A stretch of 64,000 nt of DNA from Candidatus Altimarinota bacterium (lineage in GTDB: Bacteria > Patescibacteriota > Gracilibacteria > 1-14-2-50-48-13). Every line of letters starts with the position of its first letter. Position 1 is the first letter of the stretch. Position numbers and translations under genes: made by a program. This document shows positions 2,285-48,561 of this stretch, piece after piece. The DNA lies in contig JBKBWQ010000001.1 of assembly GCA_046314355.1 (NCBI GenBank), forward strand, positions 192,001 to 256,000, read 5' to 3'. The notes below the pieces were generated by a model. The model was not told where the DNA came from. It saw nothing but the letters and a program-made list of their open reading frames with translations, and did not search any database.

Positions 2285-3338
2285 TTGTAAGAAGGTTGGT
2301 AATATCTTGTACTGCGGAGGATGATACATTTAAAGGAGCTTTTGCAGACAAAAGCTCCTTTAAAGTTTTAAGCAGGGCTTTCATTTCTAGGTCCTTTTCC
2401 TCCACCATCCTCCCCATCTCCGGATACATCTTCATGAACTCCTCCGCATTGTCATACTGATCTCCTCGTGACTGCGCACGCGTCAAAGGGATCATGAGTA
2501 CTGGTTTCTGCAGATATATGAACTCAGCCAATGCTGTAGATCCTGCACGGCTTATGACTATATTTGTTAGAGCAAAAATGTCCTTCATCTCATCACCCGC
2601 AAATTCAATCTGTACATAACGTTTTTCTACCTCGGATTCCAATGAAACAGGGAAGCTTTTTCCTTTTCCTACAAGATGAAGAATATTGTACTGAGAGAGG
2701 ATTTCTGCCGCATTTTTTTTGATAAAATCATTAATGCTCCCAGCTCCTAGGCTGCCGCCAACCACCAAAATAACTGGCAGTTTATTTTTCTCCAAGCCAG
2801 TAAAATTATATCCATTCTCCTTACTTCCATCCTTTAATTCCTCTCTTACAGGTATGCCGGTAAGTACCGCATTCTTCCCTGGAAAGAGAGAAAGAGTCTT
2901 TTTCCACGACACGCAGATTGTAGATGCAAACTTGCTTGATATCCGTGTGGTGAGTCCTGGATAGACATCTGATTCATGAATGATCACTTGTTTCTGCAGT
3001 ATTTTTGCTGCAATTACCACGGGGAGACTCACATAACCTCCCTTTGAAAATACTACATCGGGAGAGAGTTTTATGATCAGAAAAATGCTTTGAAATATTC
3101 CAAAAAGTACTTTAAAGACATCGGCAATATTCTGCAGGCTAAAATATCGTCTCAGCTTTCCGGCTTGTATTGCATAGAAGGGAACTCCTTCCTTAGATAT
3201 AAGTTCCTTTTCCATGCTGTGATTTTCACCTATATAGCTTAAGCGGATCTTCTGATGATCCTTCTTAAGCTTCCTGAGGAGGGCTATATTGGGAAATATG
3301 TGGCCGCCCGACCCGCCTCCTGTTAATAAAATATGCAT
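2274..3338 (-). CDS. murG: Undecaprenyl-PP-MurNAc-pentapeptide GlcNAc transferase MurG
   Basis: TGGGSGGHIFP, SKGGYVSLP, HESD, GGSLGA, SRAGSTALAE and Q-YDNA motifs; downstream of ftsW. Confidence 0.97.
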   Translation of the reverse strand: MHILLTGGGSGGHIFPNIALLRKLKKDHQKIRLSYIGENHSMEKELISKEGVPFYAIQAGKLRRYFSLQNIADVFKVLFGIFQSIFLIIKLSPDVVFSKGGYVSLPVVIAAKILQKQVIIHESDVYPGLTTRISSKFASTICVSWKKTLSLFPGKNAVLTGIPVREELKDGSKENGYNFTGLEKNKLPVILVVGGSLGAGSINDFIKKNAAEILSQYNILHLVGKGKSFPVSLESEVEKRYVQIEFAGDEMKDIFALTNIVISRAGSTALAEFIYLQKPVLMIPLTRAQSRGDQYDNAEEFMKMYPEMGRMVEEKDLEMKALLKTLKELLSAKAPLNVSSSAVQDITNLLTTKV

Positions 3339-4464
3339 GTTCTACCGTGGTGTAACGAGATATATTGAGAAGTATGCCTGTAGCTGTGATATTCATGATA
3401 AGAGACGATCCTCCCATGGATATAAACGGCAGGGTAATTCCTGTAAGAGGAAAGATCTTGGTGGCTACTGCTATATTTACAAATGCCTGCCAGATAATCC
3501 AGAAGGTTATACCGATGGCCGTATACCGTGCAAATTTATCAGGAGCATTCTGAGCGATAAGCATTCCTCTCCAGCCGATGGCTAGAAAGAGAAGAATAAG
3601 AGCAAGGGATCCTCTGAATCCTGTCTCTTCAGCTATGGCAGAGAAAATGGTGTCACTCTCCACTTCCGGAAGATATCCCCATTTCTGAATTGAGTTATTG
3701 ATACCTCTGCCCATAAAGCCGCCGCTGCCTATTGCAATGAGACTTTGCTGGATTTGCCAACCTACATTTTTATTTGAAGGGTCAATAGAAGGATCCATAA
3801 AGTCTTTGATACGGTCCTGCACATGTTTAAATGAAAAGGCAGCAAACATGAATACAAGTACTCCGATGAGAGCCATCATCAGAAGATGCTTGAGTCTTCC
3901 TCCTGCAGCAAAAAACATGACTACGAGGGTTGGGATAAGAACCAGGAATCCTCCAAAGTCCGGCTGTGCAGCGATAAGTATACCCACTACACCGGTAATA
4001 ATACAGAAGGGAATGAAGCCTGTATCAAGATTTTTCAGTTCATCCACCTTAGGCTCCAGCCAGCGTGCCAGATATATAATAGTCGATAGTTTTACAAACT
4101 CGATCGGCTGTATTGAAGGAATATTTGCACCAAAGTTCAGCCATCCTGTCGCTCCATTCAGACTTACACCAAATGAAGTAAAGAGGAGAAGCATTAGAAC
4201 AATTCCCAGAATATATAATATTGGGGAAAATCTTTTCCAGAATGTATACTTGATGTTACTCACAACAGCCCAAATAAACAGACCGCCGACTACAAGGTAT
4301 ACTTGTTTAAGTGCATAGGTATTGATCATCTCGTCCTCTATCTTCTTGATACTAGAAACAAAGCTGAACACACTTACGCTATAGACCATGATAAGGCCAA
4401 AAACTATAAGAAGGAAAACAAGGATGAGAAGGAGGTAATCAATAGAGTGTTTCTTCTGTTGCAC
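3265..4464 (-). CDS. ftsW: SEDS peptidoglycan polymerase FtsW
   Basis: Multi-TM; IQPIEFVK, QPDFG, YLPEVESDTIF, TGITLPFISMGGSS motifs; adjacent to murG. Confidence 0.93.
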   Translation of the reverse strand: MQQKKHSIDYLLLILVFLLIVFGLIMVYSVSVFSFVSSIKKIEDEMINTYALKQVYLVVGGLFIWAVVSNIKYTFWKRFSPILYILGIVLMLLLFTSFGVSLNGATGWLNFGANIPSIQPIEFVKLSTIIYLARWLEPKVDELKNLDTGFIPFCIITGVVGILIAAQPDFGGFLVLIPTLVVMFFAAGGRLKHLLMMALIGVLVFMFAAFSFKHVQDRIKDFMDPSIDPSNKNVGWQIQQSLIAIGSGGFMGRGINNSIQKWGYLPEVESDTIFSAIAEETGFRGSLALILLFLAIGWRGMLIAQNAPDKFARYTAIGITFWIIWQAFVNIAVATKIFPLTGITLPFISMGGSSLIMNITATGILLNISRYTTVEHAYFINRRRVGRPHISQYSPPQEA

Positions 4465-4537
4465 AGGAAAAAGTGAAAAAAGTTATCATCATGATATTAA
4501 GGAAAAATAGAAAGTTTGAAAGGTAATTAAATAAGAA

Positions 4538-4570
4538 AATCATTAGGCTCAATCATTAGGCTCAATAACT
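4538..4570 (+). repeat. Left arm of inverted 13-bp repeat array flanking the four-helix-bundle gene
   Basis: Two exact AATCATTAGGCTC copies followed by AATAACT. Confidence 0.85.
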
Positions 4571-4647
4571 GTTAGTATTATTGAACAACAGATCTTTATT
4601 GATAAAGAATAATTATTATGGATAGTAAGATATTATAATAAGAGATT

Positions 4648-5028
4648 ATGACTGTAATTCTACTTAAGGATTTTAAACCATACCAAAATGCGCTTATTTT
4701 AAGTAGTAATGCTTGGAAGGTTTATAATAAGTTATCTACTCAATGTAAATTTCATCCAGGAGGACAATTTATTAGAAGTGTTGACTCTATTGGAGCAAAT
4801 ATTGCAGAAGGCTATGGACGATATCACTATTCGGATAAAAATAAATTTTACTACAATGCTATAGGATCTTTAACTGAAGTGTACTTTTGGCTTGATATAC
4901 TTAGAGATAGGGAATTTGTACTTATACCACAGTTATCTATTATTCAAGATCAGCTAAATGAACTTTTACACATATTAAATAAAATGATTTTAGATAATAA
5001 ATCATTAAAGAATTTTAACAGTAGATAA
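4648..5028 (+). CDS. Four helix bundle protein (TIGR02436 / 23S rRNA IVP-like)
   Basis: 126 aa with the QFIRSVDSIGANIAEGYGR...F..AIGSLTE signature; AT-rich and opposite in orientation to both neighbours. Confidence 0.92.
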   Translation: MTVILLKDFKPYQNALILSSNAWKVYNKLSTQCKFHPGGQFIRSVDSIGANIAEGYGRYHYSDKNKFYYNAIGSLTEVYFWLDILRDREFVLIPQLSIIQDQLNELLHILNKMILDNKSLKNFNSR

Positions 5029-5033
5029 TTATA

Positions 5034-5072
5034 AATAATTGAGCCCAATAATGTGCGCCCAATATTGAGCCC
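5034..5072 (-). repeat. Right arm (inverted) of the repeat array flanking the four-helix-bundle gene
   Basis: AATAATT-GAGCCC-AATAAT-GTGCGCCC-AATATT-GAGCCC, i.e. reverse-complement GGGCTC/GGGCGCAC units. Confidence 0.85.
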
Positions 5073-6554
5073 TTATTTCTTCAACACCCCATTATCCAGA
5101 TACCCCAACGGATCCACATGTTTTCCGTCCTGGAAGACTTCAAAATGCAAGTGTGCTCCTGTGGTCATCCATCCTGCTCCGGCTGTCCCAGGGGTACCTC
5201 CGGAGAGTCCTATGATGTCTCCACGTTTGACTAGATCACCTGCGGTTACTAGGATCTTGCTTACGTGACCGTAGAGAGTCATGACACCTCCATTGTGAGC
5301 AACCATGATATAGCTGTATCCAAGACCGCTGTCTTTTACCTTGGTTACATATCCGTCAGCTGGAGAATGGATCTCGCTTGCCTGAGGTGCAGGTATGTCT
5401 ATGGCGCTATGAGCGACTCCAAAGGTATTCACATAGCTTGAATCGTGGAAATATGCGGTTATACCTCTTAGCGGTGGAACCGGCCAATCAAGACCGAGTT
5501 TACCATTTGTACCTTCACCAAGCTGTGCAAGGATCTTTGCACGTTCTGCAATTTCTTCAGGTGAAAGAGAGCTGCTGGCAATATTTTTCTGAAAAGCCTC
5601 AAGTTTAGTTTCAATTTCCTTGATGCTTTCCTGCTGAAGGAGAACTTCTTTCTGGATCTCTTCCTGTAGTTTTCTGTTTTCTTCAACGAGAATCTCAAAA
5701 TTTTTCTGTTCACCCTGGGTTCTCTCTAAAAGCAGACGTTTACTTTCCTTCTGCTGACTTAGAGTCTGCTGAGCAATAGAGAAGGACTTTTGTAGTTCCG
5801 CTAGACGCACCTGATCGTTTGTAAGCTGTTTTTTTCTGATATTTAAAAGGAGATCTACGTCCTGCAGATCTGCTAGGATATCGCTTCCGCTTTTACGAAG
5901 GATGGTTGCATATTTATTTGCAGTTAAAATGTCATTTATACCATTTTGAGTCACAAAGTAGGACACATCATTTGAAATATTCTTTTCAGGTGCAAAATAA
6001 ACCTGATTCTGTTTATAGAGAAGTTCTACATAGGTAGTAACAATTCTATCCTGTTCCTTGCCTGCAATTTCCGTAAGATTAATTTTTTCATAATTTTCAG
6101 TAACATCCTGTTCTTTTTCTTGTATCTGTATCTGTGTATTCCGTATTTGAAGCTTTGTAAGTTCTATCTCGCTATCAAGAAGTGCAAGCTCATTTGTGAG
6201 GGAGACAATATTTTTCTTGAGACCTTCAATTTTCTGCTGATAATTATTGATATCAGCAGTTATTTGAGTAAGTTCTGATACCCGGGAATCAAGCTTATTC
6301 TTTTCGTTATCAAGCTCTGTCTGAGAATAGAAAAGTTTTGAATTCCAGTTCTTCAGTACTTGACTCTGACGTGCGTTCAAGCGGTTTACTAGATCTTTTA
6401 TCTCCTTCTCTGGATCTGTCTGTGCTGAAGTCACTGAGCCTTGAGCGTGAACTGGGAAAGATAGAGAAAAAATATCTGTCCAAAACAGGGAAAAAAGGAT
6501 CAGGCTCAGAGTCAAATATGTGAATTTCTTTTTCATGTCGGGTATTATAAACAT
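5073..6554 (-). CDS. Coiled-coil M23 family peptidase (peptidoglycan endopeptidase, EnvC/MepM-like architecture)
   Basis: Signal peptide, long coiled coil, C-terminal HSAID...YGH...HLHFEV M23 motifs; real start may be MKKK at 6536. Confidence 0.92.
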   Translation of the reverse strand: MFIIPDMKKKFTYLTLSLILFSLFWTDIFSLSFPVHAQGSVTSAQTDPEKEIKDLVNRLNARQSQVLKNWNSKLFYSQTELDNEKNKLDSRVSELTQITADINNYQQKIEGLKKNIVSLTNELALLDSEIELTKLQIRNTQIQIQEKEQDVTENYEKINLTEIAGKEQDRIVTTYVELLYKQNQVYFAPEKNISNDVSYFVTQNGINDILTANKYATILRKSGSDILADLQDVDLLLNIRKKQLTNDQVRLAELQKSFSIAQQTLSQQKESKRLLLERTQGEQKNFEILVEENRKLQEEIQKEVLLQQESIKEIETKLEAFQKNIASSSLSPEEIAERAKILAQLGEGTNGKLGLDWPVPPLRGITAYFHDSSYVNTFGVAHSAIDIPAPQASEIHSPADGYVTKVKDSGLGYSYIMVAHNGGVMTLYGHVSKILVTAGDLVKRGDIIGLSGGTPGTAGAGWMTTGAHLHFEVFQDGKHVDPLGYLDNGVLKK

Positions 6555-9705: not shown

Positions 9706-9787
9706 AATTTCTAAACATAAATGTTAAAGCTCCCACATATTACGGGAGAAAAAGAAAGAGTAAAGAGGAAGGAGGGGGATAGTTGGA

Positions 9788-9915
9788 GAGTAAATGGTAA
9801 TTAAGCAGTTAAGGGCTCGTTATTGGGCTCAATAATTAGGCGCTAATAATTGAACTCAATAATTGCAGCCCAATTACCGAGCCCCAATTACTTAATGACT
9901 CTCTTACTCAATTAC
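9788..9915. repeat. Self-inverted 13-14 bp unit array (gene-less copy)
   Basis: GGGCTCG, GGGCTC, AGGCGCT | GAACTC | GCAGCCC, GAGCCCC cores separated by AATWATT-like spacers; between divergent ybaB and rplY. Confidence 0.88.
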
Positions 9916-10066
9916 TTTTTTACTTTCTATCCATTTTCTCCCTCACTTCTTTTAAAAAACTATTGCAAAAACGAATTTCTAGAGTATCTTTGTAGAGCAT
10001 ATTTAAAGAAGGGCGCTCAATATATAAAAATTAACGGTATTACTTTTCTAACATTTACACACACGG

Positions 10067-20090: not shown

Positions 20091-20199
20091 AGTCAGATTT
20101 GGAAAAATTATCGTGCATTATTATAAAGGAAGAAGAGAAAACAAAAAAGTAAAAAAAACGATTTTCTTGCCGGTTTTTAAGTGCATGATAGAGTGTAGG

Positions 20200-20327
20200 G
20201 GAGAAGTGAGTAATTGGACTCAATAATTAGGCTCAATAATTGGGCTCAGTAATTATGGCTCACATAATTAAGTAATTGCGCTCAATGATTGCAGCCCAAT
20301 TATGTGCACCCAATCACTGATCCTCCC
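20200..20327. repeat. Self-inverted 13-14 bp unit array (gene-less copy)
   Basis: GGACTC, AGGCTC, GGGCTC, TGGCTC | GCGCTC | GCAGCCC, GTGCACCC cores with AATAATT-like spacers. Confidence 0.9.
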
Positions 20328-20355
20328 ATCCTAACCTTAAATTTTACACTATTGT

Positions 20356-30008: not shown

Positions 30009-30073
30009 GAAATATGATTTTAAAACAAGTAATGAGAGTATACTGTTGTTTTGTCAAATTGGAAGAGGAAGGT

Positions 30074-30201
30074 GGAGAAGTGAGGGGGTAATTGGGCGCA
30101 CATCATTGGGGCTCGGTAATTAGGGCGCAATTATTGGACTTAATAATTGCAGCCTAATAATGAGAGCCCAATTATACGCACCCAATGACCGAGCCAATTA
30201 C
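30074..30201. repeat. Self-inverted 13-14 bp unit array (gene-less copy)
   Basis: GGGCGCAC, GGGGCTCGG, AGGGCGC | GGACTT | GCAGCCT, GAGAGCCC, CGCACCC, CCGAGCC cores. Confidence 0.9.
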
Positions 30202-30211
30202 ATTTTACCTC

Positions 30212-30239
30212 TTTACTTTTCTCAATTTCCTCATATACT
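30212..30239 (+). promoter_or_regulatory. Putative sigma70 promoter
   Basis: TTTACT-N16-TATACT immediately after the array. Confidence 0.45.
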
Positions 30240-30409
30240 CCACCTCAGCTTATATAGTTTCATTTTTATGAACGCTTCTACATCTCACAGCCAGGTCTCT
30301 ACGCTAGCTATGTCACAGTATTGTGTCAAGTTTATTCGTATGTGGGATTTTGAGGCTCGGGAGATAGAGAAGATGCGGTTAAGCTAAACACTTTACAAAC
30401 AACTTTCTC

Positions 30410-43888: not shown

Positions 43889-43926
43889 AATTGAGAGAAT
43901 TGATATTCACTCTTCATTGTAACATA

Positions 43927-44026
43927 GGGGGCGCAGGAGCTCAATAAATGGGCTCGTAATTGGGCTCTAATTATTTGGGCTGCAATAATTGAGCTCAATT
44001 ATTTAATATTGAGCTCAATTATCGCG
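43927..44026. repeat. 13-14 bp unit array (gene-less copy, mostly left arm plus palindromic centre)
   Basis: GAGCTC, GGGCTCG, GGGCTC, GGGCTGC cores, then perfect 20-bp palindrome AATAATTGAGCTCAATTATT (43984-44003) and another GAGCTC. Confidence 0.88.
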
Positions 44027-44041
44027 TCCTTGTCTTTCTTA

Positions 44042-46471: not shown

Positions 46472-46651
46472 AAATATATCTGCATTTAAGCGAATAATAC
46501 GAATGGAAGTGTACTAGGAAAAAGGAAAAAGTAAAAGAGTAATTGGTAATTAAGTAATTAGTATTGTTGCTAGTTAGTAATAACTGCTTTGAAGCTTTCT
46601 TATTCTTACAAGCTATGATATAAACAAAATAATTATTACTTCTAAATATCT

Positions 46652-47143
46652 ATGCGTTTTCTAGGCATTGATCCAGGTATTGCTACAGTTGGTTTTGGAG
46701 TTATTGAAAAAACAGGCAATAACTATACTATGATTGATATGGGGACAATTGTTACTCCAAAAAATCTAGATACTCCTGAGAGACTTAATATCATCCGTAC
46801 TGATTTACTTGATCTCATTGATACTTTCAAACCGCATGCAGTATCAGTAGAAAAACTCTACTTTTCTACAAATGTAAAAACTGCCATGACTGTAGCAGAA
46901 GCACGTGGTGTAATACTTGAAACTATATTTTCGAAAGGTATTCAGGTAGTGGAATTTAACCCTCTTGAGATCAAGCAGGCAGTGACTGGGGACGGTAAAG
47001 CTGATAAAAAACAAATTCAGGATATGCTGAAGCTATTATTAAAACTTGAAAAAGCACCGAAGCAGGATGATGCTGCTGATGCTTTAGCAAGTGCTCTTTG
47101 TCTGGGACAGAGTTGGGAAATGGTAAAGAGGATGGGGGAGTGA
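46652..47143 (+). CDS. ruvC: Crossover junction endodeoxyribonuclease RuvC
   Basis: LGIDPG, VEKLYF, EARGV, DDAADALA. Confidence 0.97.
   Translation: MRFLGIDPGIATVGFGVIEKTGNNYTMIDMGTIVTPKNLDTPERLNIIRTDLLDLIDTFKPHAVSVEKLYFSTNVKTAMTVAEARGVILETIFSKGIQVVEFNPLEIKQAVTGDGKADKKQIQDMLKLLLKLEKAPKQDDAADALASALCLGQSWEMVKRMGE

Positions 47144-48561
<1,418 letters not shown>

Follow-up and report, generated by a model that had tools for sequence, protein, structure and literature searches.

To our knowledge, proteins of the PF05635/S23p family became known in the early 1990s as the puzzling open reading frame (ORF) of some 23S rRNA intervening sequences (IVS); beyond that they are known only, from later work, as kin of Avd, and their function is unassigned. 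Insertion sequences of the IS1397 type encode a transposase, have ends of their own and insert into the loops of extragenic palindromes. According to PMC4990558, the Coxiella 23S IVS is an element of 428 nt whose terminal stem measures 28 bp and whose S23p ORF is preceded by tandem heptamers, and RNase III excises it; the paper also places rRNA intervening sequences at helix tips and cites Ralph and McClelland (1993) for the idea that the IVS ORF is a mobility factor. Avd, according to PMC10053308, has a four-helix-bundle fold and belongs to a family homologous to PF05635. Intergenic heptamer arrays are described from Xanthomonas (GGGAATC, 70-75 as convergent inverted pairs), Nostoc (GGGGA(C/T)T) and Beggiatoaceae (TAACTGA), and S23p, IVS and four-helix-bundle genes go unmentioned in the two papers concerned (PMC4692102, PMC4679880). 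A search of the open PubMed Central and bioRxiv literature, which may miss subscription papers, yielded no account of PF05635 cassettes at locations other than rRNA, nor of a link between them and dispersed arrays. Here we describe a PF05635 gene lying between inverted arms in a 64,000-nucleotide stretch of a Candidatus Altimarinota genome, together with the gene-less palindromic arrays that are kin to these arms.

The window (the whole 64,000-nucleotide stretch that was analysed) corresponds to positions 192001-256000 of contig C1 of this genome, which we have designated G000 (1.69 Mb, 38% GC, 28 contigs, 98.26% complete). The gene is located in a 608-bp spacer within a host operon of the order M23 peptidase, ftsW, murG-like. 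We read this spacer as an IVS-type cassette insertion, in which a four-helix-bundle gene and its leader are held in inverted arms, and the gene-less arrays as descendants of such arms, a reading to which we assign a probability of about 50%. The locus has the ORF-in-hairpin design of the 23S IVS, here outside rRNA and between cell-wall genes.

The 126-aa product matched PF05635 (23S_rRNA_IVP) over profile positions 1-106 of 106 (E 3.1e-21, 76 bits, cut-off 33.8) and TIGR02436 ('four helix bundle protein'; E 3.6e-22, 78.7 bits, cut-off 24), which places it in this family above the curated cut-offs and over the full domain. The sole solved relative found by sequence was 2RLD, whose five chains are annotated 'uncharacterized protein'. 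The gene was the only ORF of at least 60 aa wholly contained in the insert; PF05635 was its only Pfam match and PADLOC returned no match for its product. The GC content of the gene was 27.8% compared to 38.2% genome-wide, and values across 4400-5099 ranged from 0.245 to 0.31 compared to 0.38-0.52 in the neighbouring genes. An earlier note on this DNA, made from the sequence alone, had described an AT-rich four-helix-bundle ORF antisense between the M23 and ftsW genes, had stated that its product shares a fold with Avd and is not a recognised transposase, and had reported repeat units of opposite orientation on its two sides. The ORF, its orientation, its composition and its lack of a transposase match were all found as described, and the kinship with Avd is stated in PMC10053308.

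The flanking units were likewise present, as two copies of AATCATTAGGCTC on the left and GAGCCC / GTGCGCCC / GAGCCC on the right. The left arm ended 83 nt before the start codon, and the right arm began 6 nt past the stop codon and ended exactly at the stop codon of the M23 gene. Each arm is half an array, oriented towards the other, and neither is a full palindrome. Their best pair (4539-4557 and 5034-5052) spanned 19 nt at 84% complementarity, and the arm-arm RNA duplex of -24.3 kcal/mol was equalled by 1 of 500 shuffles. For either strand, the minimum-energy structure and the centroid both had the insert closed by an interrupted arm-arm stem of ~19-21 pairs, so that terminal inverted repeats pair around the ORF as they do in an IVS. 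The stability of the whole-insert folds was not above that of shuffles (z = 0.09 and -1.45), the arm stem alone being notable. The unit motif matched 20 times in the window against 2.43 expected, a number reached by none of 100 shuffles.

Comparison of the junction with relatives, as the earlier note had proposed, revealed it to be empty elsewhere. M23 and ftsW were adjacent and co-directional in all three same-family genomes (G001, G002 and G003, which belong to different genera and share ~70% DNA identity in ftsW), with spacers of about 5, 12 and 78 nt, respectively, lengths that depend on the reading of start codons. Neither a four-helix-bundle gene nor an array was found at the M23-ftsW junction in any of the three; the 608-bp spacer is therefore, by sequence comparison, a lineage-specific and derived insert. 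A metagenome scan with FtsW returned three relatives only. The best of them, a metagenome contig with 62% FtsW identity, had an empty 12-nt junction and apparently belongs to the G002 lineage. Contigs from the source sample (three runs) showed the filled form only, in the source contig alone, with no joint across the insert; the empty sites known are all from other genera. PF05635 genes were patchily distributed in the class, being present in 12 of 20 relatives, with none in G001 and G002 and one partial copy in G003.

The five gene-less palindromic arrays that the earlier note had listed in the window proved to be real, and their coordinates were confirmed. BLAST of these arrays against contig C1 gave 95 merged intervals, 59 of which contained at least three pieces; once three loci that were partial or one-sided, and both arms of the cassette, had been set aside, 54 arrays remained, which we have designated family A. 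The arrays were long, imperfect palindromes that covered a median of 141 nt; their units repeated every 13-14 nt and their outer modules every 8 nt, and the median fold energy was -53.5 kcal/mol. Local alignment of the cassette arms with the 54 arrays gave median scores of 16 (left) and 22.5 (right), whereas random 70-mers scored 7 at the median and 9 at the 95th percentile; on these alignments the arms belong to family A. The scan of the genome for arrays and the genes at their axes, also suggested beforehand, found the four-helix-bundle gene to be the only gene at an axis among the arrays analysed, which agrees with the description of the locus as an array with a gene at its symmetry axis. 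The genes that lay between two full arrays were housekeeping genes (ddl, dnaJ, lexA-like and rpsT).

The 12-mer ATTGAGCTCAAT, a frequent array centre, occurred 38 times in G000, 0-3 times per genome in 300 others of the class and not at all in the three same-family genomes, so family A is confined to G000 among the genomes searched. All 54 arrays were intergenic, with 31 in co-directional, 16 in divergent and 7 in convergent spacers (62%, 19% and 19%, respectively, for the spacers of G000 overall). In co-directional spacers, 23 of the 31 arrays were nearer to the upstream stop codon than to the next start codon, at a median distance of ~-4 nt. A role as intrinsic terminators was not favoured, given 7/54 arrays in convergent and 16/54 in divergent spacers and no terminator-like site in the one spacer scanned (4300-5250). 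An Rfam scan of the whole window at gathering thresholds returned two tRNAs only and no family for the arrays. No remnant of a four-helix-bundle gene was detected in or near the arrays by tblastn at E up to 50, which gave nothing below E 0.5 beyond the three genes of this family in G000, and four noise matches near arrays.

These three PF05635 genes were 29-38% identical to each other and all AT-rich. One of the other two, at C1:452371-452727, was bracketed by inverted arms of heptamer-like units that belong to a different palindromic family, designated family B (median similarity of the two arms to it 18 and 22, compared to 8 for random sequence), of which G000 carries 11 ORF-less intergenic copies. 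The two bracketed paralogues were 29% identical. This second pairing of cassette and repeat family strengthens the link between cassettes and arrays.

The arrangement was then sought in other genomes, with an inverted-repeat score obtained by comparing the upstream flank of a gene with the reverse complement of its downstream flank. The homologue set comprised 80 loci at 39-58% identity from named genomes of many phyla, 74 of which were testable with 250-nt flanks. A score of at least 25 was reached by 57 of the 74 and of at least 40 by 25, compared to 9/273 and 0/273 in shifted control windows at the same loci. A replicate of 38 PF05635 loci from five further genomes, a subset of the hits in those genomes chosen without regard to likeness to the gene described here (37 testable), gave 23/37 and 9/37 against 2/40 and 0/40 in controls. 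The arms were built of tandem units of 7-16 nt whose sequence differed between loci. In the 45 cases with a score of 30 or more, the median distance was 42 nt from upstream arm to start codon (interquartile 13-78) and 25 nt from stop codon to downstream arm (interquartile 7-57); the geometry of the cassette described here (83 and 6 nt) is close to this range. As judged from these flanks, the gene-between-inverted-arms design holds for most PF05635 genes across many phyla.

ORF-less copies were searched for in six other genomes with the exact two-unit pattern of one cassette's arm, and such exact patterns undercount. The number of ORF-less sites far from any PF05635 gene was zero in G303 and G304, one in G301, two in G305, five in G302 and about 25 in G306. 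The co-occurrence of genes and arrays that the earlier note had proposed to test was seen in G301, G302, G305 and G306 but not in G303 and G304, where the arm units occurred at the cassette only. That the arm sequence is private to the cassette in some genomes argues that the arms travel with the gene; elsewhere it is common to many gene-less arrays, as in G000. A reversed-pattern control for an octamer arm was discarded as invalid, the reversed octamer repeat being a phase shift of the same repeat.

Some further features of the homologous loci were recorded. On the coding strand, the upstream arm had more G than C in 39 of the 45 cassettes (among loci L023-L102), a polarity that the two bracketed cassettes of G000 did not clearly follow. 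Two different four-helix-bundle cassettes of genome G012 had a 137-nt stretch of arm in common (L145:1079-1210 and L146:515-650), inverted in one relative to the other and 84% identical, although their genes were diverged.

Features of the cassette, its neighbours and the family A arrays of the window (positions are those of the window)
Feature	Position	Strand	Basis or remark
ftsW/rodA-family gene, downstream neighbour in host operon	3265..4464	-	PF01098 E 6.4e-92; ORF list
Left arm, outer module, degenerate, GGTAATTAAATAAG-type, part of the 608-bp insert	4465..4537	.	Array BLAST covers 4500-4575; resembles family A outer modules of the GTAATTAAGTAA kind
Left arm, two 13-nt units AATCATTAGGCTC	4538..4563	.	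Sequence reading, unit motif scan
AT-rich leader of four-helix-bundle gene, weak promoter-like hexamers	4564..4647	+	TTGATA-16-GATAGT at 4599-4626; suggestion only
Four-helix-bundle gene, 126 aa, intact	4648..5028	+	PF05635 / TIGR02436; nearest solved structure 2RLD E 3.6e-4
Right arm, three reverse-oriented units ending GAGCCC / GTGCGCCC / GAGCCC	5034..5072	.	Array kinship; arm-arm stem
M23 peptidase gene, upstream neighbour in host operon	5073..6554	-	PF01551 E 4e-23
ORF-less family A palindromic array	9770..9930	.	BLAST, sequence reading
ORF-less family A palindromic array	20185..20335	.	BLAST, sequence reading
ORF-less family A palindromic array	30060..30240	.	BLAST, sequence reading
ORF-less family A palindromic array	43915..44035	.	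BLAST, sequence reading
ORF-less family A palindromic array	47100..47290	.	BLAST, sequence reading

A promoter and terminator scan of 4300-5250 returned seven promoter-like sites, compared to 5.2 expected from shuffles, and no terminators. Additional repeat sequences were noted in the window and elsewhere on C1. A solitary outer-module half-array (window 46508-46560) lay upstream of a RuvC-like ORF (46652-47143), and the last array of the table overlapped the last codons of this ORF and continued past its stop codon. At C1:1283472-1283528 there was a one-orientation tandem array (CTCTTACT)n of the family A outer-module unit, with no palindromic partner. The only gene of G000 with a PDDEXK_3 / GxxExxY-type nuclease fold (C1:326033-326476; PF13366, E 9e-31) had a full family A array ~10 nt past its stop codon and no upstream arm; like the four-helix-bundle gene, it is small, in AT context, without an assigned role and beside a hairpin repeat. 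A third hairpin family, whose ACTAGTAACTAGTGAC...GTCACTAGTTACTAGT stems are near-perfect and form part of a larger, GC-rich composite repeat, was present at C1:750040-750110, where a tRNA gene lies on one side and the third four-helix-bundle gene on the other, and at ~10 further intergenic sites (e.g. C1:849111-849144, 860635-672 and 1251618-658).

Candidate mobilisers of family A were looked for in the whole genome. A reverse transcriptase (PF00078) gave no match anywhere in G000, which is 98.26% complete, and was rejected as a helper. Two Y1 (IS200/IS605-type, PF01797) transposase genes were found, one intact (C1:772665-773087) and one a frameshifted copy (C1:827760-828114). Both were flanked by a GC-rich hairpin, CCCCGGAG...CTCCGGGG, which is unrelated to family A, and because of this different cognate hairpin the Y1 transposase was rejected as the family A mobiliser. 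No transposase was linked to the family A arrays, and the 608-bp insert did not encode a recognisable transposase or recombinase of the kind that marks an autonomous transposon with derivatives like miniature inverted-repeat transposable elements.

Under the reading as an IVS-type cassette insertion, the arms would have arrived with the gene, as where the arm sequence exists nowhere else, and the ORF-less arrays would be the same hairpin without cargo, like ORF-less rRNA intervening sequences. The arrays would derive from such arms and would have been spread by a mechanism without a recognisable encoded transposase. By analogy with the RNase III cleavage of the 23S IVS stem, the paired arms may let the insert be processed from the operon transcript, and we propose that with such processing its presence between essential genes would be tolerated. 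As the comparison with its relative Avd suggests, binding of the hairpin or of the repeated units is the most likely role of the protein, rather than catalysis of movement.

Several results weigh against this reading. The gene is antisense to the operon that hosts it. The arm-arm duplex energy was equalled at 31 of 1280 genes of G000 at the same geometry, and the strict inverted-repeat score of the locus was 24, a score of at least 25 being reached by 48 of the 1280 genes; because of these scores the bracket is modest and not compelling alone, and the case for a cassette is made by its context rather than by the arm bracket alone. The cassette arms, with a within-pair similarity of 16 compared to an array median of 21, were among the more degenerate. 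Arms at the other four-helix-bundle genes, which the earlier note made a test of its proposal, were present at C1:452371-452727 (family B) but absent from the third gene (C1:749611-749964), whose score of 18 equals background. The arrays showed no folding bias to the transcribed strand (18 vs 13, p = 0.64) and no RNA-level wobble asymmetry, so an RNA-level role for them is without sequence support. Nor was there within-copy compensation between array arms (median similarity 21 within and 20 between copies), and the rank of each array's own partner arm was evenly spread; in the absence of such compensation, the arrays behave as diverged copies of one palindromic source. Finally, a search of five genomes for recently duplicated cassettes found none, so movement of cassettes is rare or old.

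Three other explanations were weighed against the cassette insertion. The low strict score would suit a chance position of an ordinary small gene between two unrelated partial arrays, in a genome rich in repeats; the housekeeping genes ddl, dnaJ and lexA-like likewise have an array on either side. We regard such a coincidence as highly improbable, since the PF05635 family is bracketed in the same way at most loci elsewhere (57/74 and 23/37), comparison with three relatives shows all of the 608 bp to be a single insert, the arms are facing half-arrays rather than two full palindromes, and a second paralogue has the same arrangement with another repeat family. More can be said for an independent origin of family A, as 3′-end hairpins resembling repetitive extragenic palindromic (REP) sequences or bacterial interspersed mosaic elements, one apex of which the gene entered later by targeting a hairpin loop, as happens in the helices of rRNA; on this view the arms would represent target DNA. 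The arrays vastly outnumber the cassette, they lie just past stop codons in co-directional spacers, as REPs do, and the left arm has the outer module typical of an array. The position of rRNA intervening sequences at helix tips, as given in PMC4990558, fits as well, and the PDDEXK_3 gene and the third four-helix-bundle gene also adjoin hairpin repeats. Against it, the arm sequence in G303 and G304 occurs at the cassette only and so cannot have been drawn from an older dispersed family, the spacing of arms and gene here is close to the canonical range, families A and B would each need to have been hit by a four-helix-bundle gene, and the arrays are not enriched between convergent genes (7/54, compared to 19% of spacers). 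On balance we consider this origin unlikely, while giving it some weight.

The earlier note had proposed that gene and arms form a mobile or self-propagating unit with the empty arrays as its non-autonomous derivatives, by analogy with REP-associated tyrosine transposases (RAYT) and the REP doublets forming hairpins (REPIN) that they accompany. Developed in full, this would make the cassette an autonomous mobile element whose protein acts in trans to copy or move the 54 arrays, a pair of the RAYT/REPIN type with a new kind of protein. A part of the proposal stood: the insert is discrete and derived, the layout is similar, and it is only the four-helix-bundle gene that occupies an array axis. 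Two paralogues as divergent as 29% identity each accompany a repeat family in one genome, arm units are cassette-specific in G303 and G304, family A is confined, among the genomes searched, to the sole one that carries the cassette, and neither a reverse transcriptase nor an array-linked transposase offers an alternative; an IVS mobility factor encoded by the ORF is moreover an old idea (Ralph and McClelland 1993, as cited in PMC4990558). Autonomy itself fared less well. The protein is a 126-aa helical bundle without a known catalytic domain or motif, its nearest solved structure is only an 'uncharacterized protein', the flanked gene is not a Y1 gene and the Y1 genes of the genome carry another hairpin. 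The cassette arms are degenerate rather than consensus and the arrays hold no remnant of the gene. All array copies are diverged (99th percentile of between-copy scores 38-39 of 70), which argues against recent activity; recent cassette copies were lacking in the five genomes, and two of six genomes have cassettes without ORF-less copies. We therefore hold an autonomous element to be distinctly doubtful, and prefer the IVS-type cassette insertion.

A wider proposal can be made, which we offer as speculation with little probability attached: PF05635 proteins may be sequence-specific trans factors of unrecognised hairpin-armed mobile elements, each paralogue recognising its own arm units and spreading arrays with host enzymes. 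The first paralogue of G000 would then pair with family A and the second with family B. If true, this would explain the rRNA intervening sequences, many genus-specific families of tandem repeats and palindromes, and the function of PF05635 after 30 years. As it stands, an orphan protein family is tied to a dispersed repeat family by one cassette and ~54 gene-less copies. With two divergent paralogues, each with its own arm family, and 54 and 11 ORF-less copies, one small genome provides a direct experimental handle. Should the link be causal, it would explain how genus-specific families of tandem repeats and palindromes, so far unaccounted for, arose in many bacteria.

Of the known systems, the ORF-bearing 23S IVS (Coxiella burnetii helix 45 with S23p; Leptospira), as described in PMC4990558, shares with the cassette the PF05635/S23p family, an ORF in the loop of a stem of terminal inverted repeats, short tandem repeats beside the ORF, insertion as a discrete unit and the existence of ORF-less versions. 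Unlike these IVS, the cassette lies outside rRNA, between protein-coding genes and antisense to them, its arm units are 13-14 nt long and ~54 ORF-less copies are dispersed in intergenic DNA. The only 23S gene of G000 (C1:1366156-1369178) is ~1.17 Mb away and has no family A array. Because it is not inside an rRNA gene (helix 25 or 45), the cassette is not a member of the 23S IVS class.

The REP/REPIN and RAYT (Y1) systems resemble the locus in having dispersed intergenic palindromes and a single gene flanked by inverted copies of them, and in G000, too, an intergenic palindrome family shares sequence with the flanks of the gene. Membership fails because the flanked gene belongs to PF05635 and does not encode a Y1 (HUH) transposase; additionally, family A consists of tandem-unit arrays of 120-190 nt compared to REPs of 20-35 nt. 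The cassette resembles the IS1397-type elements in that a gene-bearing element occupies the apex of one copy of a dispersed palindrome family, but it has no transposase and its arms look to be part of it. Avd of the diversity-generating retroelements is a nucleic-acid-associated accessory protein of homologous fold. In those systems a reverse transcriptase gene is expected beside the Avd-like gene; in contrast, G000 has no PF00078 match and the gene is alone inside its inverted arms (a template/variable repeat pair was not looked for). Closest to family A itself are the arrays of Xanthomonas, Nostoc and Beggiatoaceae, which PMC4692102 and PMC4679880 describe as genus-specific, intergenic short tandem units, often in inverted pairs that can form hairpins or cruciforms. 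Family A differs from them in its unit of 13-14 nt rather than 7 nt, and in that its units are shared with the arms of a resident four-helix-bundle cassette.

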